64,000 nucleotides of DNA, from the NCBI GenBank assembly GCA_036496915.1, contig DASXKH010000015.1, forward strand, positions 902-64,901, given 5' to 3'. The position numbers were made by a program, and so were the translations under genes. How positions within the stretch are numbered: position 1 is the first letter of the stretch; each line of letters begins with the position of its first letter. The DNA comes from Solirubrobacteraceae bacterium (GTDB lineage Bacteria > Actinomycetota > Thermoleophilia > Solirubrobacterales > Solirubrobacteraceae). Positions 29,962 to 41,689 of the stretch are shown in pieces. The notes beneath the pieces were generated by a model. The model made no database searches. It was not told where the DNA came from and saw only the letters and a list, made by a program, of their open reading frames with translations.

Positions 29962-30015
29962 CCAGTTTTATTGGAAGCCACTCAGTGAGAAGGAACAAAT
30001 ATTGAGGAGGAACAA

Positions 30016-30303
30016 ATGACTAAGAGTGAAACAGACCTATTCAAGAGCCTGAGGGCGCGAGGAGTCCGCAAGAAGATCGCCAAGCAAATGACCCGTGCTA
30101 CGAGCGGCGCTGGTAAGCCAAAGGTCGCCACGCGCGCGATGGCGGACCTTAGCTCGGTCGTCGGGGATGTTAGTGATCGCCTTCGCCACGGACCGGAGAA
30201 GCGGAGTGCGGCAGCGAAGAAGGCCGCGCGTACGCGCAAGCGAAAGGCTCACAAGCGCAGTCAGTCTGCCAAGCGCGGCGCCCGGACTCGCGCTCGGGCG
30301 TAG
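30016..30303 (+). CDS. Small, very basic hypothetical protein (histone-like tail)
   Basis: GAGGAGG RBS; RSAAAKKAARTRKRKAHKRSQSAKRGARTRARA. Confidence 0.8.
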   Translation: MTKSETDLFKSLRARGVRKKIAKQMTRATSGAGKPKVATRAMADLSSVVGDVSDRLRHGPEKRSAAAKKAARTRKRKAHKRSQSAKRGARTRARA

Positions 30304-30329
30304 AGCCGCGGGTGACCGCTACGCCAATG

Positions 30330-30849
30330 TTACGAGTGCGTGAATCCAGTCGTCAGCAACGGCCGGCTCGGCAGCCTCGTCAAGTCGTCTCGGCACTCCA
30401 CGCCCTGTATGTCGAACTCGCACACCGCGCCGTCGGTGAGCGCGAGTCCGGGATTCTGGAAGCCGAGCTCGCTCCAGCGCGGTCGCCCGTCGTGGGCGTC
30501 GAGGGCGAGCAGCATTTCGTCGGGGTTCCCGCTCCGACCGAGACCGTTCGCCACTGCCACACCCGGGTGGCGCCATCGCCGAATACACATGTGGAAGCAC
30601 CCCGGTGAGACAACGGGTGGGGTGATCGCCAAGCTCCCCAACGAACAGGTCAACAAAACGAGGATGTCGTTCACGTGGGACTACCGGCAGAAATCTGAGA
30701 TTCAGGCACCCTCCGAATACGAAGAAGGCGCGACGAAAGTCTCGGCCTACCTTACGAGCGTCGTCGGTGTCGGTGGCCTCCATGTGAGAACCGGTGAGGA
30801 AGCCACGGAAACCATGACGTTCTCCAGCAACGTCGAGATCAGCGCATAA
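30330..30849. pseudogene. Two divergent 5'-truncated gene remnants
   Basis: Minus strand carries LLALDAHDGRPRW (PQQ-like repeat); plus strand carries HMWKHPGE...SNVEISA. Neither has a plausible start. Confidence 0.35.
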
Positions 30850-30896
30850 ACAACAATACGAGCGTGGTCGTCAGCGTCTGAGATCGCGACCGAAAC

Positions 30897-30923
30897 GTGG
30901 GGGATGGCGCCGCCGTCCCCCAC
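30897..30923 (-). terminator. Hairpin terminating the copper operon
   Basis: GTGGGGGATGGCG-C-CGCCGTCCCCCAC, followed by GTTT on the minus strand. Confidence 0.6.
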
Positions 30924-30970
30924 AGCCGGTCGGGTCCGATGGCGCCGGACCAAGTTGGGGCCTATCGGAG

Positions 30971-31702
30971 CTACGCGGTCGTCCTGCGCCGCGCGGCGAG
31001 GAGCGCGGCGAGGCCGGCGATCAGCCCGAGCGCGCCGAGGATCAGGCCGGCGACGGCGAGACCTTTGCTCGCAGCGCTGCCGCTGGAGCTCGCCGCGGCC
31101 GGTGTCGATGCCGACGCGGACGGGCTCGCGGCCTTCTGTCCCGCTTCCGGTCCGGCCTCGTCGCCGGCGATGTCCTGAATCACTCCGCCCTTTGCGGTGA
31201 CGTTGATCCTCGGGGAGGGGTGTTCGGCTGTCAGCGAGGGCGAGATCCAGTGGACCACCTGCCCGTTGCTGTAGGTCTGCACGGTCCTGAATTCGAGCGC
31301 CCTGCCGGTCGCGTCGGTCGGGATCGCCAGCGAGAGCGGGAACTGGACGAACTGTCCGTTGCCTACCTTGCCCAGCGGGCCGGTCCACGTCCAGACGATC
31401 TGTGAGACCTCGGTGTCGATCGTTTCACCGTCTTCTTTGATCGGGGTGGTGAGCTTGGCTTCGATCACGCGCGTGCTCCAGCCGGGCACGTTTTCGTAAT
31501 CCACCCCGGCGAACCCCTGCGGGAACAGCGTGTCCACCTTCTTGACATAGGCGCCTTCCTGCTCGCCGGGGACGCGCACGTCGAGCGTCGCGAACGCCCC
31601 TGCGGGGATCGTGTTGGGGTGCAGGCTGATGTGGGCCTGCGCGCCCGCCGGCGCCAGCAGGGCTCCGGCGGTGAGCAGGGCGGCGAGACGCTTGGCTTTC
31701 AT
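30971..31702 (-). CDS. YcnI (DUF1775) family copper-binding membrane protein
   Basis: Signal ending AQA-H(ISL), RVPGE, PGW, QTYSNG...W, C-terminal TM. Confidence 0.92.
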   Translation of the reverse strand: MKAKRLAALLTAGALLAPAGAQAHISLHPNTIPAGAFATLDVRVPGEQEGAYVKKVDTLFPQGFAGVDYENVPGWSTRVIEAKLTTPIKEDGETIDTEVSQIVWTWTGPLGKVGNGQFVQFPLSLAIPTDATGRALEFRTVQTYSNGQVVHWISPSLTAEHPSPRINVTAKGGVIQDIAGDEAGPEAGQKAASPSASASTPAAASSSGSAASKGLAVAGLILGALGLIAGLAALLAARRRTTA

Positions 31703-31727
31703 GCTTAGGTGTTCCTCCTGGATGGGT

Positions 31728-33626
31728 TCATTGGATGGGCACCTTCACCGTGCGGCTGAACTGTTCGAATTCAGACACCCGGTCGACGAATTCGATCTCC
31801 CAGGTCCCGCCGGGGCTGAGCACGGTGGAGCTGATGATGTAGTGGCCCGGTCCCGCCACGGTCGGCTTCAGCGCCAGCGGGCCGATCCCCTTGGCGGGCA
31901 GCCTGGCCGTGGCCGTGAGTTCCTTGGTGGCGGTGAACTGGGCGCCAGTCCTGGCGTCGATCAGATAGAGGTGGATCGTGTTCAGCCCGACCCTGGCCGG
32001 TTCGACGGTCATCTCGAGCTCGGCCGGACCCAGTGTCGTGTTGACGGAGAACGGCCCCGACGCCGCGTCGATCGGGGGCGCGTAGCCGATCAGCGCCGCG
32101 GTCACGCCGAACACGCACAGCATCAGCGCGAGCTCGCCGCGCATCGTGCGACGGGCCAGCGCGCCGACTCCACCAGGCGGCCGGCCGTCGCCCACCAAGC
32201 GCTCGAGTGCCGGGATGATCCGTTCGCGGTGAACCCAGCCGAGGCCGAGCAGCGTCGCCAGCAGCGCGACCTTGACGACGATCAGCGCGCCGTAGGTCGT
32301 GTGGAAGAGCCCGTGCAAGCTCCGTACGTCGATGTACGCCTGGACGACCCCGGTCGCGGCGATCGCGATCACCGCGCCCAGGGCGATCGGAGAGAAGCGC
32401 GCGAGCGTGCCGAGCAAAAGGCGGCTGCGCTCGTCGCCCTCGAGCCGGCGCGTGGCGCCCGGCAGCGCGAGCAGCAGGCACGCGATCCCTCCGACCCAGA
32501 CGCTCGCGGCGAGGACGTGCAGCGCATCCGAGGGGAAGAACACGACGACGGGGCTCTCGACGCTCGCGTGGCCGGCCAGCGCCGGGGTGATCGCCAGGTA
32601 GAGAGCGCCGATCGCGAGCAGGGCGAGGATCGCGCGCGGCGCGGGTGGGGTCAGCGACAGTCCCTCCTCGCCCGGGGTGCTCGTCAACGGCGTGTCCCGG
32701 GCCGTCGCCCGTGGTGTGTCCCGGGTGCTCGCCGGGGGAGTGTCCCTCGCTGCGGGCGGCGGCGTGTCTCGGGCACTCGAGCGCAGCGTGCGGATGACAT
32801 CCCGGCCGAGCACCCTGGCGAGCAGCAAAAGCGCGCCGAGCGCGAGCCAGTCGATCGCGCGCAGGCCCCACACGCGGCCAAAGCGGCTTTCCAGGGTGCT
32901 TTCGAGGATCGGGTCTTTCAGTGACGCCCACAGCGACACGCCCGCAGCGCTCGCCCCTTGCAGCAGCACGCCGAGCACGCTCACGATCACGCCCAGCACG
33001 ATCGCGAGCGCGAACAGCCGCCACAGGCGCGAGGCGAACGCGCGCGAGGCCTCGACCCAGCGCGGTCGCGCGCCCGCGAGCGCCGCGAGGCCGGGAAGCC
33101 AGGCGCAGAACAGGAAGGCGAGCCCGCCGAGCATCAGCGCGATCGTCAGGTAGTTAAGCGCGCGCACGACGCCGAAGGCGACGGTGGTGGCCTCGCCGCT
33201 CCGGCTCTTGCCGATCAGCCCGGCGACCGTGAACTTCGGCGCGGCGCCCGCGTGCCCGATGTTGAACACCAGCCCGCCATAGACGATGTGCGTGTCGGCC
33301 GAGATCACGCGGTAGGTGGCGGTATAGGTGCCGTCCGGCAGATGCGGCTTCAAACCGACGCCCATCCAGCGCTCGTCGCCGTATGGGTGCGAGACGTCCA
33401 GGTCGTCTACCTCCTCGCCCCGCGCGTCATAGACGCGGACGGCGCCCAGCGTGCCGCCGACGTCCTGGTCGAACTCGAAGATCACCTCATGGGGCTGAAT
33501 CTGGACGGTCGAGCCCGACGTTGGCGAGGTGCCGAGCAGCTGCGCGTGCGCCCACGCCGGCGGGGCGCTCGCGAGCGTGGCGGCGAGCGTGATGGCGAGC
33601 ATCGGCAAGATGAGACGGCGGGACAT
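31728..33626 (-). CDS. CopC/CopD fusion copper importer (YcnJ-like)
   Basis: AWA-HAQLLGTSP, YRVISADTH, LAGHA, LHVLAASVWVGG, C-terminal YtkA-like domain. Confidence 0.93.
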   Translation of the reverse strand: MSRRLILPMLAITLAATLASAPPAWAHAQLLGTSPTSGSTVQIQPHEVIFEFDQDVGGTLGAVRVYDARGEEVDDLDVSHPYGDERWMGVGLKPHLPDGTYTATYRVISADTHIVYGGLVFNIGHAGAAPKFTVAGLIGKSRSGEATTVAFGVVRALNYLTIALMLGGLAFLFCAWLPGLAALAGARPRWVEASRAFASRLWRLFALAIVLGVIVSVLGVLLQGASAAGVSLWASLKDPILESTLESRFGRVWGLRAIDWLALGALLLLARVLGRDVIRTLRSSARDTPPPAARDTPPASTRDTPRATARDTPLTSTPGEEGLSLTPPAPRAILALLAIGALYLAITPALAGHASVESPVVVFFPSDALHVLAASVWVGGIACLLLALPGATRRLEGDERSRLLLGTLARFSPIALGAVIAIAATGVVQAYIDVRSLHGLFHTTYGALIVVKVALLATLLGLGWVHRERIIPALERLVGDGRPPGGVGALARRTMRGELALMLCVFGVTAALIGYAPPIDAASGPFSVNTTLGPAELEMTVEPARVGLNTIHLYLIDARTGAQFTATKELTATARLPAKGIGPLALKPTVAGPGHYIISSTVLSPGGTWEIEFVDRVSEFEQFSRTVKVPIQ

Positions 33627-33665
33627 CGAAGGCTCCTCGTGGCGTATCCGGGCATGGCGATCGCG

Positions 33666-33697
33666 GAACGGTCACGACGAGATCGACGTGACCGTTC
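33666..33697 (-). promoter_or_regulatory. 11-bp stem hairpin between the leader ORF and copC/D
   Basis: GAACGGTCACG-N10-CGTGACCGTTC. Confidence 0.6.
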
Positions 33698-33752
33698 ATG
33701 ACTGGGGTCTGAGGACGAGCAGCCGCCGCCCCGGGCGGGACGGAAGTGAGGT

Positions 33753-34010
33753 CTAGCTCGCCGCGATCGGCACGGGCGGCGGGCGCACCGCCAGGGAGCA
33801 GCCGATCAGCCGACCGCCGCGCACCACCCACGACACGACACCGGTACGCGCGGGCTCAGACGAGCGTGGGCGTGGCCATTGAGCCGGCTCCATGCCCCTT
33901 CGCAGCGCGAGCAGGGCGCGCTCGCCCGGATAGCGACGCGCGAGGAGCGGTATCGCCAGTGCGATCGCAGGGAGCAGACAGAGCAAAGCATGCAGCACGG
34001 CTGCAGACAC
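33753..34010 (-). CDS. 85-aa leader ORF of the copper operon, ending in an RPPP motif
   Basis: GGAGGAG RBS and GTG start; hydrophobic N-terminus containing His and Cys; C-terminus GRLIGCSLAVRPPPVPIAAS. Confidence 0.7.
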   Translation of the reverse strand: MSAAVLHALLCLLPAIALAIPLLARRYPGERALLALRRGMEPAQWPRPRSSEPARTGVVSWVVRGGRLIGCSLAVRPPPVPIAAS

Positions 34011-34160
34011 TACTCCTCCGCTCCTCCCATCAGTGCGGCCTGGGCCGCCGTCTCGACCTGGGCGCGAACCTCCCGTCAAAACGCCACTGCGGTGACCGGC
34101 GCCGGCAGGGCTGTGGGAACCCGCGGGCTATGGGTCACCCATCCAACCCCGCGAGCGTCC

Positions 34161-36323
34161 TCAGCCGACCGGCGCGGTCTCCCCGGCGCGCGGGTGCTCC
34201 TCGGGAGCGCGCCGAGAGTGCAGCTCCGCGAGCTCCAGCTGCAGGTTGCGCGGGCGCTCGCTCGGGCCGGGGGAGCGTCGGGTCCAGACGCTCTCGGCAT
34301 CGAGCTCCCACGAGCTCTGGTTGTCGGCAAAGGCCCGCTCCAGAGCGTCAAGCAGCTCGGCACGCAGCGCAGGAGACTCGATCGGGGTCGCGAGCTCGAC
34401 GCGGTGGTCGAGATTGCGCGGCATCATGTCGGCCGAGCCGATGTAGATCGTGTGCTCGCCGGCGCGCTCGAAGGCGTATACGCGCGAATGCTCGAGCAGC
34501 CGTCCGACGATCGAGACGACGCGGACGTTCTCGGAGACGCCAGGTACGCCTGGTCGCAGGCAGCAGATCCCGCGCACGTTCAGATCGACCCGGACGCCCG
34601 CCTGGGAGGCCTCATACAGCGCCCGGATGCAGCGCCCGTCGACGAGCGCGTTCATCTTCATCATGATCCGGCCGGGCGTCTGTGGAGAATGCGAGGCGAT
34701 CGTCTGCTCGATCTGGGCGAGGATGCCATCGCGCAGCTGGTTGGGCGCGATCAGCACCTTGCGGTAGTGCAGCGGGCGGCCGAAGCCGGTCAGGTAGTTG
34801 AACATGTCGGCCACGTCCGCGCCGATCTGCTCGTCGGTCGTGAACAGCCCAAAGTCCGTGTACAGGCGCGCGGTCGCCGAGTGGTAGTTGCCGGTGCCGA
34901 TATGCACGTAGTTGCGCACGCCGTCGCCCTCGCGGCGCACGACCAGCACGCACTTGGCGTGCGTCTTCAGCGCGGGCTGACCGTAGACGACGTGCACGCC
35001 GGCCTCCTCCAGCGCCTTGGCCCAGTGGATGTTCATGCGCTCGTCAAAGCGCGCCTTCAGCTCGACCAGCGCGACCGCCTGCTTGCCGCGCTCGGTGGCG
35101 TCGATCAGCGCCGGCACGAGCGGCGAGTCATCGCTCGTGCGATACACGGTCTGCTTGATCGCGAGCACGTTCGGGTCGGCCACGGCCTGCTGGACGAAGC
35201 GCTCCACGGAGGTGGAGAAGGAGTCGTAGGGGTGGTGCACGAGCAGGTCGCCTTCACGCATCGCGCCGAACACGTCCGGGCGCTCGGAGTCGTGGCGCAA
35301 GAGGCGCGGGTGGGTGTTGCCGAGCAGTGGCTCCTCGCGCAGCTCGCCGTGGCCGGGCAGGCGCACGAGCTGCCACAGCGCGCCCATGTCGAGCAGCCCG
35401 TCCACCGGGTAGACCTCGTCCTCGGCGACGCCCAGCAGCTCGATCAGCTCCTCGCGCAGGCGGTGCGAGCAGCGCGTGCCGATCTCCACGCGCACGATCT
35501 CGCCGAAGCGCCGGCGGCGCAGCTCGTCCTCGACCGCCTGCAGCAGGTCGGCGGCGTCGTCGGAGACCTCCAGGTCGGCGTCGCGCGTGACGCGGAAGAC
35601 GTCGCAGTCGACGATCTCCATGCCTGCGAACAGCGCGTCGAGATGGTGCGCGATCACGTCCTCCAGCGCAACCAGCGTGAGCGGACCGTCCGCGGGCTGC
35701 TCGAGCGCGACGAAGCGCGGCAGGATCTCGGTGGGGACCTTCACGCGCGCGAACACAGTCTCCTCGGTCGCCGGATCGCGCACGAGCACGGCCAGGCTGA
35801 GGGAGAGGTTGGAGATGTAAGGGAAAGGGCGCCCGGGGGCGACGGCGAGCGGTGTCAGCGCCGGGAAGATCACGCGGCGAAAATGGCGGGCCAGCTCGGC
35901 ACGCTGGTCCTCGTCGAGCTCGTCCACGGCGACCACCGCGATCCCGTGCTCGGCCAGGGCGGGGCGCAGGCGCCCTTCGAAGCAGTCGCTCAGGCGCACC
36001 CCGAGCTCCTGCGCGCGCTCGCGGATCAGGGCGATCGTCTGCGAGGGCGTGCGCCCGTCCTGGCTGGGGCTCTCCACGCCCGCGTCGATCTGGTCGTGCA
36101 GGCCGGCGACGCGCACCATGTAGTACTCGTCGAGGTTCGTCGTGTAGATCGCGCAGAACTTGACCCGCTCGAGCAGCGGCGCGGACTCGTCCTCGGCGAG
36201 CTGCAGGACGCGGTCGTTGAAGTCCAGCCAGGAGAGCTCGCGGTTGATGTACAGCGCGGGATCCTCCAATGCGGGACCCTCCACGGCCGGACCGTCTGCT
36301 GCGGGGTGATCGTCGTCGAACAT
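34161..36323 (-). CDS. ppk1: Polyphosphate kinase 1
   Basis: INRELSWLDFNDRVL, NLDEYYMVRVAGL, VHHPYDSF, KQTVYRT, ELKARFDE, KTHAK, GTGNYH. Confidence 0.97.
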   Translation of the reverse strand: MFDDDHPAADGPAVEGPALEDPALYINRELSWLDFNDRVLQLAEDESAPLLERVKFCAIYTTNLDEYYMVRVAGLHDQIDAGVESPSQDGRTPSQTIALIRERAQELGVRLSDCFEGRLRPALAEHGIAVVAVDELDEDQRAELARHFRRVIFPALTPLAVAPGRPFPYISNLSLSLAVLVRDPATEETVFARVKVPTEILPRFVALEQPADGPLTLVALEDVIAHHLDALFAGMEIVDCDVFRVTRDADLEVSDDAADLLQAVEDELRRRRFGEIVRVEIGTRCSHRLREELIELLGVAEDEVYPVDGLLDMGALWQLVRLPGHGELREEPLLGNTHPRLLRHDSERPDVFGAMREGDLLVHHPYDSFSTSVERFVQQAVADPNVLAIKQTVYRTSDDSPLVPALIDATERGKQAVALVELKARFDERMNIHWAKALEEAGVHVVYGQPALKTHAKCVLVVRREGDGVRNYVHIGTGNYHSATARLYTDFGLFTTDEQIGADVADMFNYLTGFGRPLHYRKVLIAPNQLRDGILAQIEQTIASHSPQTPGRIMMKMNALVDGRCIRALYEASQAGVRVDLNVRGICCLRPGVPGVSENVRVVSIVGRLLEHSRVYAFERAGEHTIYIGSADMMPRNLDHRVELATPIESPALRAELLDALERAFADNQSSWELDAESVWTRRSPGPSERPRNLQLELAELHSRRAPEEHPRAGETAPVG

Positions 36324-36489
36324 TGCCTGCGCTCACGCTACACCCTCGGCGGCCGCGATCTGTCGTCAAGCGCCGCCTGCAACGCGCATGTCCCTCCGTG
36401 GGTCGCCCGGACTCCGTCCCCGGCACGCCGCACGCCGAGGACGTCCTGTCAATGGCGATGGTGCAGAGCGCGCTAATCTGATGCCGGGC

Positions 36490-36996
36490 ATGGCGCGCCA
36501 ACTCTGGCTACTACGTCACGCCGAGGCCGAGCCGCACGGGACGCGCCCGGACTCGGAACGACGGCTGACCGCGCGCGGGGAGCAGCAGGCGCGCGCGGCC
36601 GGGGTCGCGATCCAGCGGCTGGCGGTCGCCTTCGACGAGGTGCTGTTCTCTCCCAAGGAGCGCGCCCGTGCGACCGCCGAGCTGGCCGCCGAGGGCTGGA
36701 GCGCCCAGCAGCGTGAGCTGTTGCGCGAGCATCCCCCGCTGGCGGGCGGGTTTCACTCCTCGCAGGCGATCGACGTGCTGGCCGGGACGCCGCCGCAGGA
36801 TGGTCGCCTGCTGCTGGTCGGTCACGAGCCGGACCTCTCGCTGACGGCCGGCGGGCTGACCGGCGGGCGGATCGACCTGAAGAAGGGTGGCCTGGCGGTC
36901 GTGCGGCTAGAGGGCGCCGGCGGTGAGCTCGCGCTCCTGATGCGTCCCCGCGAGCTCGCGCTGATCGCGGGCGTTACCCCAATCGACCGGGACTGA
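36490..36996 (+). CDS. sixA: Phosphohistidine phosphatase SixA family
   Basis: LLRHAEAE, RRLTARG, SPKERARATA, LVGHEP. Confidence 0.88.
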   Translation: MARQLWLLRHAEAEPHGTRPDSERRLTARGEQQARAAGVAIQRLAVAFDEVLFSPKERARATAELAAEGWSAQQRELLREHPPLAGGFHSSQAIDVLAGTPPQDGRLLLVGHEPDLSLTAGGLTGGRIDLKKGGLAVVRLEGAGGELALLMRPRELALIAGVTPIDRD

Positions 36997-37833
36997 GGCA
37001 GCGGCGTCGGCCGCGCCGGGGGCGACCGAGATGTCGATGTCGCCCTCCCGCGCGGAGCTCGCCGCGCCGGCGGCGATCGCGTCCAGCGACTCCGCGGCGA
37101 AGCGGTAGCCGATGCCGAAGTGGGTGTGGATGTAGCGCCAGCGCGGCGAAGCCCGCTCGAGCTTCTGGCGGAGCTTGCGCACGAACACGTCGACCGAGCG
37201 GTCGCCGCGCACCATCGCGTAGCCCCACAGGCGCGAGTAGATCTCCTCGCGCTCGAGCACCCGGCCCTCGGCGGCGGCGAGCAGCTCGATCAGCTCGAAC
37301 TCGCGCCTGGTCAGGTCGAGGCTTGAGCCTGCGACGAACGCCTGGAAGCGGTCGGTGCGGATCTCGACCTCCCCCGCCTGCAGCGGCTTGACCTCGGCGC
37401 GGCCGCTGGCGCGACGGCGACGGCGCGCGACGCCCTGCACGCGGGCGATGACCTCCTCGGGGTGGCAGGGCTTGGTGATCCAGTCGTCGGCGCCCAGACG
37501 CAGCCCGCGCACGCGCTGGGCGACCGTCGAGGGGCCGGTGCAAACGACCACGCCGAGCTCGGGCAGCGCGCCGCACAGGCGCTCCAGCCACTCCCACGCC
37601 TGCGGGCCGAGCACCGCCAGATCGACGATCAGGGCACTCAGACGCATCGAGGCGATCGCGTCGGTGGGGACGGGTCCGGCGAGCACGCGGTGCTCCCAGG
37701 CGAGGCGGTCCAGACGCTTGCTCAGGACCTGAATGAAGCCACTGTCGCGGTCGAGCACCGCAATACGCAAGGAGCTTGCGCCCGGGGTGCTGGACGGCGC
37801 CGCCTCCTCCGTGGCGCGGATGCTTTCCGTCAT
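36907..37833 (-). CDS. OmpR/PhoB-family response regulator (no adjacent kinase)
   Basis: Receiver domain (IVDL, VCTG, GADDWITKP) plus winged helix (LTRREFELI, RSVDVFVRKLRQKL, HTHFGIGY). A TAAACT -10 box lies 8 nt before the ATG. Confidence 0.92.
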   Translation of the reverse strand: MTESIRATEEAAPSSTPGASSLRIAVLDRDSGFIQVLSKRLDRLAWEHRVLAGPVPTDAIASMRLSALIVDLAVLGPQAWEWLERLCGALPELGVVVCTGPSTVAQRVRGLRLGADDWITKPCHPEEVIARVQGVARRRRRASGRAEVKPLQAGEVEIRTDRFQAFVAGSSLDLTRREFELIELLAAAEGRVLEREEIYSRLWGYAMVRGDRSVDVFVRKLRQKLERASPRWRYIHTHFGIGYRFAAESLDAIAAGAASSAREGDIDISVAPGAADAAASVPVDWGNARDQRELAGTHQERELTAGAL

Positions 37834-37885
37834 CGCCGCGCAGTTTAGGGGACCGCGCGGACCGCGTGTGCAACGTCCTGCCCAC

Positions 37886-37903
37886 GGTAACAGGATGTTC
37901 ACA
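37886..37903 (+). promoter_or_regulatory. PHO-box-like direct repeat upstream of the response regulator
   Basis: GGTAACAGGATGTTCACA; TAACA and TCACA are 11 bp apart. Confidence 0.45.
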
Positions 37904-37938
37904 AGCGAAAATCGCTATTTGCGAGCCGATCGAGGCGC

Positions 37939-38748
37939 TCAGCGCGGCTCGGGCGCGGCATCGGGCGGCACGCCGGCCGGGTGCGACGAGTCGGAGAACT
38001 CCCTGAACAGCCCGGTGACGACGAACGCGACCTGCTCGCCGATGTCCACGGCGTTGTCGCCGATCCGCTCCAGCGCGCGGGCCACGAGGATCATGTGCAT
38101 CGCCCACTCGCGCGTGTCGGGATCCTCGCCGATCTCGATGGCCATGCGAAAGATGTCGCGGTTCAGGCGGTTGATCTCGTGGTCCTGGCGCACCAGGTCC
38201 TCGGCCAGTTCGACGTCGCGCCCGGAGAAGGCCGCGCGCGACTGCACGACCTCCGAGCGCGCCTGCGCGCCCATCTTCGCCAGCGCGTCCAGGACCTCGC
38301 GGCGCACGGGCGGCTCGTGGCCGGAGAGCGGGATCAGCTTGGCGATGTTCACGCACTGATCGCCCATCCGCTCGACGCGCATGATCACGTGCAGGAGCGC
38401 GGCGACCAGGCGCAGGTCCCCAGCGACGGGCGCCTGCAGGGCCAGCAGCGAGAGGATCCCCTGGTGGACCTCCAGGTAGCGCCCGTCGAGGCGGTCGTCG
38501 TCGGCGATCACCATCTGCGCGAGCTCCACGTCCTGATGACCCAGCGCCTCCATCACGCGATCCAGCTGCTCGACGACGAGATCGAGGCCGCCGAGCGCGC
38601 GCTCCTGCAGCTCCAGCAGCTGCTGCTGGAAGTGCACACGGCCCTGGGCCGGAGGCGGGGGCGCGCCGTCGTTGGGGCCGCCGAGCGAGTCGGGGATTTC
38701 AGGCTGAGCTGCGCCCGTGCGTGGGTCATTGCCGGCAGCCCCGGTCAT
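37939..38748 (-). CDS. phoU: Phosphate signalling protein PhoU
   Basis: IADDDRLD, QAPVAGDLR, ERMGD, LERIGDNAVDIGE. Confidence 0.95.
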   Translation of the reverse strand: MTGAAGNDPRTGAAQPEIPDSLGGPNDGAPPPPAQGRVHFQQQLLELQERALGGLDLVVEQLDRVMEALGHQDVELAQMVIADDDRLDGRYLEVHQGILSLLALQAPVAGDLRLVAALLHVIMRVERMGDQCVNIAKLIPLSGHEPPVRREVLDALAKMGAQARSEVVQSRAAFSGRDVELAEDLVRQDHEINRLNRDIFRMAIEIGEDPDTREWAMHMILVARALERIGDNAVDIGEQVAFVVTGLFREFSDSSHPAGVPPDAAPEPR

Positions 38749-38760
38749 TGTCCCAAGCTC

Positions 38761-39765
38761 CTAGCCGAACTTTCCGGTGACATATTCCTCAGTCCTCGGG
38801 TCCGATGGGGTGGTGAAGATCTCGTCGGTCGGGCCGACCTCGACGAGCCGCCCGTCGAGCAGGAAGGCGGTACGGTCGGCCACGCGCGCGGCCTGCTGCA
38901 TGTTGTGGGTCACGATCACGATCGTCACACGCGCCTTGAGCTGGTCGATCAGCTCCTCGATCTTGAGCGTCGCGATCGGGTCGAGCGCCGAGCAGGGCTC
39001 GTCCATCAGGATCACCTCGGGGTCGACCGCGAGCGAGCGGGCGATGCACAGCCGCTGCTGCTGTCCGCCGGAGAGGCCCGCGCCGGGCTCGTGCAGCCTG
39101 TCCTTGACCTCCTCCCACAGCCCGGCGCCGCGCAGCGCCGCTTCGACCTTCGGCTGCTGGACGGCCTTCGAGCGCGAGCGCCGTCCGTGCGCGGTCAGGC
39201 GCAGGCCGGCGGCGACGTTGTCGAACACGGACATCGTCGGGAACGGGTTGGGCTTCTGGAAGACCATCCCGATCGCGCGGCGCACGGCGACGACGTCGAC
39301 CGAGGGGTCGTAGACGTCGAAGTCATCCAGCAGCACCTTGCCCTGCGCGCGGGCGCCCGGGATCTCCTCGTGCATGCGGTTGATGCAGCGCACCATCGTC
39401 GACTTGCCACAGCCCGAGGGCCCGATGATCGCCGTCACCTCGTTGGCGCGGAACTCAAGGTCCACGCCCTTGACCTGTTCGGCCTGACCGTAGAACGCGC
39501 GCAAGCCCCGCAGGCGCACGGCCAGCCCGGGCTTGCTCAGCGCGACGGGCCTGCTCGCGGCGGAAACCTCTGGGCGCGCGGGCTCGGGCGCGCGGGCTTG
39601 GCTTGGCTCAGCGAGCTCGTCGGGATCCATCGTGGCGGTCCTCGGGGTTTGAGTTGGCGTTTGGGTTTGAGTTTCGGCTGGGGTCGGGACGTCGGTGGTG
39701 TGAAGCGCGGTGGCGAGACCGTCGGTGCAGAGGCCGTCGTTGGTGTTGGGGGGAGATGCGGTCAT
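38761..39765 (-). CDS. pstB: Phosphate ABC transporter ATP-binding subunit (long N-terminal extension)
   Basis: [52 protein letters not shown] overlap with pstA. Confidence 0.96.
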
Positions 39766-40661
39766 ACAAGGCGACTCCTTCGCGCGACGAGTCGGGCTAT
39801 CAGGTTGAGTATGAGGATCATCGTGACCAGTGCGAGCGCGGCCCCCCACGCACGGTCTACCACGGCCGTAGTGGGAGATGTGACGTCGTTGTAGATTTGC
39901 ACGGGCAGCGAGTTCATGAAGCCCCCCAGGTCGGTGGTCGTCTTGTTCGTCGCGCCGGCCGTGAACAGCAGCGGCGCCGTCTCACCGGCGGCACGGGCGA
40001 TCGCGAGCAGCACGCCGGTCACCATCCCGGGCAGCGCGGTCGGCAGCACGACGCTGCCGATCACCCGCCAGCGGGGCGCGCCGAGCGCGAGCGCCGATTC
40101 GCGCAGGGCGCCCGGGACGAGCAGCAGCACGACCTCCGCGGCTCGGATCACGACCGGCAGCATCAGCAGCGCCAGCGCGATCGAGCCCTTGTAACCGGCA
40201 TAGGAGCTGCCGGTGCCGATGATCAGCGCGATGTAGACGAACAGGCCGAAGATGATCGAGGGCACGCCCGTGAGCACGTCGACGAAGAAGCGCACGGTGT
40301 TCGCGAACCAGCCGCTGCGCCCGTACTCGACGAGCCACACGGCCACGCCGATGCCGAGCGGGATCGCGATCACCGAGGCGAGCGCGACGATCTCGATCGT
40401 GCCGAGGATCGCGCTCTGCACGCCGCCGATGTCGGAGTTCTTGAAGAACGTGTTGCCGGTCGGGTCGGACGTGAAGAAGCTCCAGCTCCACGAGGACAGG
40501 CCCTTGCTGAGCAGGTACCAGACGATCAGCAGCAGCGGGATCAGCGCGAGGATCGTGCCGGCGAGGACTCCGCCGCGGGCGATGCGATCGCGGCGCTTGC
40601 GCGCGGGCGTGAGCGCGTAGCGGTCCAGGCGCCGGGCCGGCGTGGCGGGCGGCGGCGTCAC
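39762..40661 (-). CDS. pstA: Phosphate ABC transporter permease
   Basis: [36 protein letters not shown] overlap. Confidence 0.95.
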
Positions 40662-41689
40662 AGTCCGGCCGCTCCGGCGACCGTCGGTGGGACGCCCTCG
40701 GCGCGCTCGCGGACGGTGGTGCGCTTGGGCGCGCGGGAGCGCTCCGCGCGCATCACGATCAGGCGGGCGATCACGTTGACGATCAGGGTCAGCACGAACA
40801 GCAACAGGCCGGCGGCGAACAGAGCCGAGCGGTGCAGTCCCTGCGCCTCGCCGAACTCGTTGGCGATCACGGCGGCCAGCGAGTAGCCCTGACCGAACAG
40901 GTGCTGGGGCATCTGCGGCGCGTCGCCGATCATGATCGTCACCGCGATCGTCTCGCCGATCGCGCGGCCGAGCCCGAGCATCGCGCCGCCGATGATGCCG
41001 CCGCGGCAGTAGGGCAGCACGGCCAGGCGGATCATCTCCCAGCGCGTGGCGCCGAGGCCGAGCGCGGCCTCCTTGTGGTCGGAGGGGACGGTGGCCATTA
41101 CCTCGCGGGAGATGGCGCTGACGATCGGCAGGATCATGATCGCGAGGATCAGCCCGGCGACGAAGATGTTGGGGATCGTGACCACGCCCCCGCCGATGAA
41201 CGGGACGAAGGAGAAGGTGTCGGCGATCCACTGCTCGACCGGCACGAGCTTGGGCGCGAGGAAGAAGATGCCCCACAGCCCGTACACAACTGAGGGCACG
41301 GCCGCGAGCAGCTCGATCAGGACGGTGACGGGCGCCCGCACCCGCCCGGGGCAGAGCTCTGTGATGTAGATCGCGGTGGCGACCGCGACCGGCACGCCGA
41401 TCAGCAGCGCCAACCCCGACGTGATCAGCGTTCCGAGCACCAGCGGCAGCGCGCCGAACTGTTCGGCGGAGACGTTCCAGTCGTTGTCGAAGGTGAAGCC
41501 GAGAACGCCGAACTTGGCGAACGCCGGCTGCGCTTCGCCGGCGAGGCGGAAGAAGAAGTAGACGATCAGCGCCAGGATCAGCGCCGCGAGCGCGGTCAGG
41601 CCGTAGCGCAGCGCGCGATCGGGAAAGCGCGCGAGCGGTGAGCGCGAGAGAACGCTGCGGTCACCGCTCGGGATCGATGCGGCCTCCAA
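40658..41689 (-). CDS. pstC: Phosphate ABC transporter permease
   Basis: ELLAAVPSVVYGLWG, EAALGLGATRWE, GRAIGETIAV. Confidence 0.95.
   Translation of the reverse strand: MEAASIPSGDRSVLSRSPLARFPDRALRYGLTALAALILALIVYFFFRLAGEAQPAFAKFGVLGFTFDNDWNVSAEQFGALPLVLGTLITSGLALLIGVPVAVATAIYITELCPGRVRAPVTVLIELLAAVPSVVYGLWGIFFLAPKLVPVEQWIADTFSFVPFIGGGVVTIPNIFVAGLILAIMILPIVSAISREVMATVPSDHKEAALGLGATRWEMIRLAVLPYCRGGIIGGAMLGLGRAIGETIAVTIMIGDAPQMPQHLFGQGYSLAAVIANEFGEAQGLHRSALFAAGLLLFVLTLIVNVIARLIVMRAERSRAPKRTTVRERAEGVPPTVAGAAGL

Follow-up and report, generated by a model that had tools for sequence, protein, structure and literature searches.

What does a gene of about 80 codons that ends close to an Arg-Pro-Pro-Pro (RPPP) motif do directly in front of a copper-uptake operon? 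The question is raised by a 64,000-nucleotide (nt) stretch of DNA from a Solirubrobacteraceae bacterium (assembly GCA_036496915.1, contig DASXKH010000015.1, positions 902-64,901), here called the window, in which a small open reading frame (ORF) precedes copCD, a copC-copD fusion gene, and ycnI. An initial annotation made from the sequence proposed the ORF as a candidate copper-sensing arrest peptide. The ORF opens a copC/D-ycnI operon for copper acquisition, and with somewhat better than even confidence, based on conservation and on analogy with characterized leaders, we regard it as a cis-acting ribosome-arrest leader of the RAPP-like (RxPP) class. All features listed in the initial annotation lie on the minus strand, and the three genes at issue are the following.

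33753 to 33998, minus strand: putative leader-peptide gene, 81 codons plus TAG from a conserved GTG (homologues, loci, start conservation)
31728 to 33626, minus strand: copC-copD fusion gene, 632 amino acids (aa), YcnJ-type copper-uptake membrane protein (Pfam CopC 7e-16, CopD 2e-21)
30971 to 31702, minus strand: ycnI (DUF1775), membrane-anchored copper-binding protein (Pfam DUF1775 1.5e-31)

CopC and CopD are joined in one protein, which is followed by a DUF1775 protein, as in the ycnJ-ycnI type of operon in Bacillus subtilis. The NCBIfam models for CopC and CopD also match the copCD product, both under their equivalog cut-offs. Between the stop of the small ORF and the copCD ATG (33626) lies a spacer of 126 nt (33752-33627), exactly as initially annotated, and upstream of the small ORF is the polyphosphate kinase gene ppk.

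Is the small ORF a gene at all? The motif alone carries no weight, since R[APGS]PP within 12 codons of a stop occurs 20 further times in the six frames of the window (69% G+C), and its significance comes entirely from conservation. A protein search returned 214 homologues (E ≤ 0.01), all of ~80 to 85 aa and all unnamed proteins; those with a source name are all from Solirubrobacterales metagenome-assembled genomes. When 1.8 billion representative proteins were searched with a profile, a family of 774 clusters emerged, many of which carry a second N-terminal membrane helix, and the members found in this way end in (P)RGGxLIAxSLAVRPPP plus 4 to 9 residues. LLxRRYPGER and L-A-x-R-P-P-P are invariant in an alignment of 39 sequences with 56 to 81% identity. 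For the genomic context, 80 loci (L001 to L080) from species-representative genomes were compared, 77 of which were used for codon-level counts. A copC-copD gene is found downstream on the same strand in 79 of the 80 loci, with ycnI after it in nearly all, and the two-helix relatives likewise stand directly upstream of CopC-CopD and DUF1775 genes. Because ppk is the upstream neighbor in only two loci, the small gene belongs to the copper operon.

Judged by this conservation, the ORF is a real gene, and a chance ORF is ruled out. Its third-position G+C content (0.78 versus 0.91 in the neighboring genes) is uninformative at so short a length. No Pfam or NCBIfam model matches the peptide or 24 members of the family. 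Genes of this kind, of ~80 aa, are today annotated as "hypothetical protein" or are left uncalled, and the start of the one in the window would be mis-set.

If the gene is real, is the peptide or the RNA under selection? The coding part can be divided into the segments below.

33939 to 33998, minus strand: hydrophobic N-terminal stretch MLHALLCLLPAIALAIPLLA, a predicted single-pass membrane helix whose N terminus faces outward (AlphaFold2, positive-inside rule)
33918 to 33938, minus strand: juxtamembrane motif RRYPGER, invariant in the 39-sequence alignment and largely kept family-wide
33774 to 33818, minus strand: C-proximal module GGRLIGCSLAVRPPP, putative arrest sequence for the exit tunnel and peptidyl-transferase center (conservation)
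33774 to 33785, minus strand: RPPP codons CGC CCG CCG CCC, residues invariant in 77 of 77 loci

At RPPP, selection acts on the peptide, as the residues are invariant while their codons change synonymously. Five codons serve for Arg across the 77 loci (CGC 57, CGT 13, CGA 3, CGG 3, AGA 1), and each of the three Pro residues, invariant in every locus, uses all four Pro codons. The sole natural alternative in relatives is RAPP, which appears as LAGRAPP in a few of them (P0200, P0255, P0270). The initial annotation had proposed looking for RPPP-ending ORFs before copCD and ycnI in relatives, and these counts bear its expectation out. The string GCSLAVRPPP that it placed at the C terminus is present but not terminal: RPPP (33785-33774) is followed by the six residues VPIAAS and then the stop. 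This tail is six codons long in 65 of the 77 loci, its first four residues varying freely. The module residues G, L, S, L, A, and V before RPPP show little or no variation, and the linker 5' of the module is variable; despite that variable linker, the distance from start to Arg is 70 codons in 56 of 77 loci and ranges only from 69 to 72. By analogy with RAPP arrests (PMC10951233, PMC12992588), the predicted ribosomal P site would be at 33779-33777 and the A site at 33776-33774.

Locus L078 holds a second, divergent family member (L078:5993-6316) of 107 aa with two helices and GRYPGE...SLAGRAPP followed by VARATV. It is placed between copCD and a second ycnI-like gene of one and the same operon, and RPPP and RAPP forms thus occur in one locus.

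Where does translation begin? The codon 20 positions before RRYPGER is GTG, TTG, or ATG in 72 of 77 loci, no other Val codon being found there, and in ~20 loci an in-frame TAG lies five codons 5' of this conserved start. In the window, GTG 33998 occupies this position, the fifth codon of the ORF as first described. The 85-codon frame of the initial annotation, from GTG 34010 to TAG 33755-33753, does exist, but the conserved start position and the upstream in-frame TAGs argue that the peptide is probably 81 aa long, beginning MLHALLC. Immediately upstream of this start is a further conserved feature.

34007 to 34012, minus strand: TAGTGT, -10-like TANNNT hexamer in a GGAGTAGnGT box, 8 nt 5' of the conserved GTG (presumed promoter element)

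In 71 of 72 loci, the hexamer of the GGAGTAGnGT box ends 7 to 10 nt 5' of the conserved start; other TANNNT hexamers are scarce in the 60 nt upstream, where just five occur. Actinobacterial -10 elements that serve leaderless mRNAs are well established, and given the distance of 7 to 10 nt between box and start, the copper-operon mRNA is probably leaderless or nearly so. GGAGGAG before 34010 was considered as a Shine-Dalgarno (SD) site; it overlaps the conserved box, and a promoter with a leaderless mRNA is favored. A promoter and terminator scan with E. coli-type models gave no match; the conserved TANNNT box is seen only by comparison. In the two-helix relatives L081 and L083, TAGGGT is found at an equal distance upstream.

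The N-terminal part has the localization signal that is characteristic of RxPP leaders: a hydrophobic stretch of 20 residues opens the peptide, and RR comes next. Within this segment, Pro at position -11 is invariant. In the AlphaFold2 model, residues 2 to 26 form a helix with a predicted local distance difference test (pLDDT) score of ~91, while the remainder scores ~50 to 74 in ten-residue blocks. Because the arginines come after the helix, matching the positive-inside rule, the N terminus would be outside. Inspected by eye, the segment is hydrophobic from residue 1 and has neither an n-region nor an AxA-type cleavage site, and thus looks like an uncleaved anchor. The initial annotation described the N terminus as hydrophobic and bearing His and Cys. 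The window's peptide does carry both, as His3 and Cys7 (HxxxC), but His is kept in 56, Cys in 59, and the two together in only 47 of 77 loci (61%). Copper sensing by this pair is for that reason no more than a hypothesis. A CXXC or CxxxC conserved at a fixed spacing to the Pro-rich motif, which is a trait of the DUF2946 leaders, was not found in the family; HxxxC is the nearest feature.

How might translation of such a peptide be communicated to copCD? The initial annotation noted an 11-base-pair (bp) hairpin in the spacer and a tract, GCTCGTCCTC, partly complementary to the copC/D ribosome-binding site (RBS). Both are there: the hairpin at 33697-33666 and the tract at 33720-33711 of the minus strand, where it belongs to a conserved anti-SD element. 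They are part of a larger set.

33789 to 33803, minus strand: anti-SD element 1, GGCTGCTCCCTGGCG, codons G-C-S-L-A, 4 to 18 nt 5' of the Arg codon
33753 to 33762, minus strand: SD mimic GGCGAGCTAG, last two codons plus stop, which pairs with anti-SD element 2
33726 to 33743, minus strand: small G+C-rich hairpin just past the stop codon (minimum-energy fold)
33711 to 33724, minus strand: anti-SD element 2, GGCTGCTCGTCCTC, which includes the tract above; GCTGCTCG is nearly invariant
33666 to 33697, minus strand: central hairpin, perfect 11-bp stem GAACGGTCACG/CGTGACCGTTC (fold)
33631 to 33640, minus strand: copCD RBS ACGAGGAGCC; CGAGGAG is kept before the first downstream gene in most loci

At the end of the ORF, selection acts on the RNA, as GCG-AGC-TAG is fixed at the nucleotide level in 60 to 63 of the 77 loci with no synonymous change. 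Between the SLAV codons and the start of copCD, the window's RNA (191 nt) has a minimum-energy fold of -87.8 kcal/mol (z = -3.2). In this fold, the codons that immediately precede RPPP, GCUCCCUGGCG (33799-33789), are the partner of the copCD RBS, the ORF end GCGAGC(UAG) pairs with GCUGCUCGU, and the tail codons CGAUCGCG pair with CGCGAUCG on the 3' side of the central hairpin. RNAalifold applied to 30 loci recovers the first two of these helices. Anti-SD element 1, paired with the RBS in both the minimum-energy and the consensus folds, is the best partner of the RBS in 19 of 52 loci. Anti-SD element 2 changes its partner in these folds: a free ORF offers it the ORF end to pair with, and once the ORF is omitted from the consensus fold, GCUGCUCGU pairs instead with the RBS. 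In the helix of SD mimic and anti-SD element 2, 92% of cells are paired; paired cells amount to 86%, compared with 38 to 55% when the partners are slid. On these models, anti-SD element 1, the SD mimic, anti-SD element 2, and the SD sequence can form mutually exclusive pairings, in which the RBS would be free only if anti-SD element 1 were covered while the SD mimic held anti-SD element 2.

Other parts of the spacer are less uniform. The hairpin just past the stop codon has an equivalent in most loci, with compensatory changes in two of three tested pairs. A long central hairpin of differing sequence is present in most loci with spacers of 118 to 137 nt and is missing from short-spacer variants; it is therefore not a core element. 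Most of loci L001 to L048, but not the window, have the stretch CCGTACAGGCACGTATGCGAGGAG between the central hairpin and the RBS, ~25 nt 5' of the first downstream gene (alignment columns 201-226). An Rfam scan of positions 30000-37000 (E ≤ 1) gave three sub-threshold chance matches and no riboswitch.

Could the peptide itself be what is selected? In this explanation, it is a working small membrane protein, e.g., an accessory subunit or chaperone of CopCD/YcnI, with RPPP and RRYPGER serving structure or binding and the RNA pairings arising incidentally. The helix and RRYPGER are kept in every member, two-helix forms included, and the gene stays beside transporter genes, which small membrane proteins commonly accompany. 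RRYPGER, unexplained by an arrest, hints at a function of the peptide itself and leaves room for one after its release, and such a function could coexist with regulation. Against this stand the low-confidence, basic, and sequence-variable region past the helix, the fixed short distance of RPPP from the stop, its sole tolerated change to RAPP, which is a canonical arrest motif, and the terminal codons, which are constrained as RNA and not as protein. The RAPP variants, moreover, occur in other metal-related settings, either upstream of the unrelated PepSY_TM or beside CtaG and DUF5134, unlike what is expected of a dedicated CopCD subunit. We consider it unlikely that a membrane protein of this kind accounts for the locus.

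An arrest leader, in contrast, would make use of both the peptide and the RNA. In the mechanism that we propose, transcription would start a few bases past the TANNNT box, giving a leaderless mRNA on which the ribosome would initiate at a 5'-terminal GUG and closely trail the polymerase. The first 20 residues would form the membrane helix with the N terminus outside, the basic remainder of the peptide being cytoplasmic, and ~70 codons on, the ribosome would pause at SLAV-R-P-P-P. The RBS would be masked either by the codons 4 to 18 nt 5' of the Arg codon or by the GCUGCUCGUC element 30 nt past the stop, for which the last two codons and the stop, mimicking a SD sequence, would compete. With one or more ribosomes over the first masking element and the ORF end paired to the second, the RBS would be free and copCD-ycnI would be translated, and upon release of the pause the masked fold would re-form. 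The stall window appears to be bracketed, at about one footprint, by anti-SD element 1 and the SD mimic, and a queued second ribosome would cover anti-SD element 1 exactly.

Release may be triggered by a pull from the inserting helix, by copper bound to His3/Cys7 on the outer face, or by elongation factor P (EF-P). For an operon of copper import, we expect the same logic as in CruR, with the paused state ON at low copper and the released state OFF. The pause itself, the signal sensed, and the direction of the switch are parts of the model that we infer. A more specific version, which we regard as speculative and rather improbable, would turn the peptide into a transmembrane copper sensor of ~80 residues without a folded domain. 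Its deformylated NH2-Met-Leu-His would be a Xaa-Xaa-His Cu(II) site of the amino-terminal Cu(II)- and Ni(II)-binding (ATCUN) type, with Cys7 one helical turn away, exposed outside while the chain is held at RPPP; copper outside would stabilize or pull the helix and thereby end the pause, turning the Cu(II) importer off. If true, this version would join the Arg-dependent block of the RAPP type with the EF-P sensitivity of polyproline.

Several observations weigh against an arrest leader of this design. His3 and Cys7 are not universal, and RRYPGER has no part in the arrest. Covariation is weak, with 4 of 22 pairs changed on both sides and a score of 0.138 versus 0.126 in shuffled alignments; covariation proof of the RNA switch, sought across the compared loci, was not obtained. 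The peptide and the RBS constrain the main helices on both strands. Duplex energies exceed those of shuffled controls in about half of the loci only, by no more than 2 to 4 kcal/mol. In footprint-constrained folding, the RBS opens in about a third of the loci, and it does so only for a P site within -33 to +3 nt relative to the Arg codon; at +6, the position of a RAPP-type pause, it does not. Opening would require a larger footprint or a second ribosome in a queue. An RPPP arrest is weaker than a RAPP arrest in the ApdA context, and PPP pauses are normally relieved by EF-P. Finally, for these uncultured organisms, a sequence search of runs of any kind found five soil DNA metagenome runs, none of them RNA.

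An arrest leader could also work through a different output, namely, Rho-dependent termination, the ribosome stalled near the stop blocking the loading of Rho on the spacer. CruR acts in this way, with an intergenic region of 162 nt (PMC9426467). The spacer here is also long, and its first 25 nt past the stop are C-rich (mean C 0.43, G 0.30); with a leaderless mRNA, moreover, the lead ribosome would be tightly coupled to the polymerase. Over its full length, however, the spacer is highly structured and has C and G near balance (0.354 versus 0.32), which makes it a poor Rho substrate, and the masking elements and the SD mimic would be left without a role. We thus think a Rho-based output distinctly unlikely. 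Least credible, and very improbable in our judgment, is plain translational coupling, in which any ribosome on the leader briefly opens the masking helix, RPPP slows it slightly, and copper control is transcriptional (e.g., by a CsoR-type repressor, a PF02583 gene for which lies 0.5 to 1.6 kb upstream in two relatives), since, although the RBS does open in silico for any P site in the -33 to +3 range, this leaves unexplained the invariance of Arg and the three Pro residues, the 11 conserved residues before them, the RAPP alternates, and the fixed spacing between helix and motif.

The PF02583 (CsoR/RcnR-type) repressor gene is found on the opposite strand in two of three two-helix relatives (L081:3070-3372, L083:3215-3517), where transcriptional and leader control may be layered.

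The operon itself varies among relatives. In ~45 of 80 loci, an extra gene, encoding a ~250-aa secreted and C-terminally membrane-anchored protein, lies between the small gene and copCD (L009:5380-6147). The protein has the conserved motifs NPINDQGSNYNYRS and LEWHDHRIHWMS (His-rich) and may be a copper-binding component of the operon; no Pfam or NCBIfam relative was found, and a PDB sequence search for its 255-aa form gave none. The extra gene starts with MSRRLIVA behind a conserved CGAGGAGCC site (L001:5376, L009:5380, and others), and the copCD of the window starts with MSRRLILP behind the same CGAGGAGCC site (window 33624-33540). Together with degenerate remnants of the extra gene in L019, L023, L007, and L010, these shared MSRRLI starts suggest that repeated deletion has fused the 5' end of the extra gene to copCD.

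Some genomes have two full modules of small gene, copCD, and ycnI: L002 and L006 lie ~70 kb apart on CAVUST010000001.1, and L015 and L022 lie ~555 kb apart on CAVOKU010000001.1. In these genomes, the extra ~250-aa gene is present in one copy of the module and not in the other. In the window, a phosphate-regulon block (ppk, a response regulator, phoU, pstB, and pstA; 34161-41276, minus strand) adjoins the copper operon, an adjacency that is common to only 2 of 80 relatives.

If the arrest-leader interpretation is correct, copper-responsive arrest leaders extend to a whole order, Solirubrobacterales, of abundant soil actinobacteria, and surveys limited to RAPP and RGPP overlook natural users of RPPP. 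The invariant RPPP then raises the question of whether it is an EF-P-sensitive hybrid of the RAPP block at the peptidyl-transferase center and a polyproline pause. The element is also very compact, as it would consist of no more than a leaderless start, a single helix, a fixed-length linker, and four short segments of RNA; this makes it convenient for studying how the ribosome is informed of a signal from beyond the membrane.

How does this candidate compare with known systems? MifM of B. subtilis is a small single-pass peptide with its N terminus outside, an arrest site that lies ~50 to 55 residues past the helix, shortly before the stop codon, and a downstream gene whose RBS is masked. This architecture of monitoring substrates (MifM, SecM, VemP, ApdA, ApdP) is shared by the putative leader described here. 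The arrest of MifM is multi-site and acidic, whereas the motif here is of the RxPP type. A downstream Sec or YidC gene, typical of monitoring substrates, was not found at the locus; the genes there encode CopC/CopD and DUF1775 proteins.

With CutF of Rhodobacter capsulatus, in which a C-terminal PPP stall on periplasmic copper overrides EF-P and melts a stem-loop over the cutO RBS (PMC9973294; bioRxiv 10.1101/2025.02.05.636593), the peptide shares a PPP near the C terminus, a downstream RBS within RNA structure, a sensing part of the nascent chain that would be outside the cytoplasm, and a likely relevance of EF-P. CutF differs in being secreted, in having CxxxC and DUF2946, and in turning on a detoxifying oxidase at high copper. 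As the genes downstream of the small ORF serve uptake, the opposite polarity is expected here. CruR of Bordetella pertussis, encoded at the head of an operon for copper import, arrests at RAPP until copper relieves the arrest and so allows Rho termination, with a spacing ruler between CXXC and RAPP (PMC9426467). Shared with CruR are the position as first ORF of a copper-import operon, the C-proximal R-x-P-P with a few residues after it, a conserved spacing of an N-terminal Cys-containing motif from the arrest motif, and a long, structured or C-rich intergenic region. A signal peptide, CXXC, DUF2946, and Rho are CruR's own; the small ORF has an uncleaved-looking helix, at most HxxxC, and RBS-masking elements, and DUF2946 matched neither the peptide nor 24 family members even at E ≤ 10. 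The initial view of an actinobacterial analogue of CruR and CutF is apt as an analogy but does not extend to DUF2946 membership. For RAPP/RGPP leaders before YcnI in Actinomycetota, arrest has been demonstrated (PMC12992588).

The leaders of that work are the nearest parallel. A survey of December 2025, whose motifs were RAPP and RGPP only, found small membrane proteins with these motifs strongly enriched upstream of YcnI-family genes (2,570 RGPP and 280 RAPP cases), and Arg-dependent arrest was shown for seven Streptomyces lividans proteins, one of them upstream of YcnI (PMC12992588). The accessible part of its supplementary text contains neither the string RYPGE nor the string Solirubrobacter. 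An alignment by hhalign with the Streptomyces RGPP upstream ORF (uORF) of YcnI was not significant (E = 0.12), and the resemblance of RRG[DE]LALxRL to RRYPGERALLALRR is for that reason only a lead. The SLIV_18480-type leaders (PMC12992588) are ~280 aa long with four helices, whereas the peptide here has 81 aa, one helix, and RPPP; RAPP and RGPP arrests resist EF-P, and the RPPP here may not. What they share is a small ORF, located in Actinomycetota on the same strand directly upstream of YcnI or copper genes, whose product has a membrane segment and carries R-x-P-P shortly before its C terminus. The co-directional metal-homeostasis gene that marks RxPP leaders is likewise present, as copCD-ycnI, the expression of which the leader would control. 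The motif here is R-P-P-P, six residues before the stop, as against the class-defining R-[A/G]-P-P, and family relatives have RAPP itself. In E. coli screens, stalling was seen for RxPP when x was G, A, S, or P, and ApdA Ala121Pro, which amounts to RPPP, keeps partial arrest (PMC12992588). The core of the initial annotation, an actinobacterial stalling leader before copCD-ycnI, is well backed by comparison and by precedent, and the family is best described as the RPPP form of the known RAPP-like copper-operon leaders.

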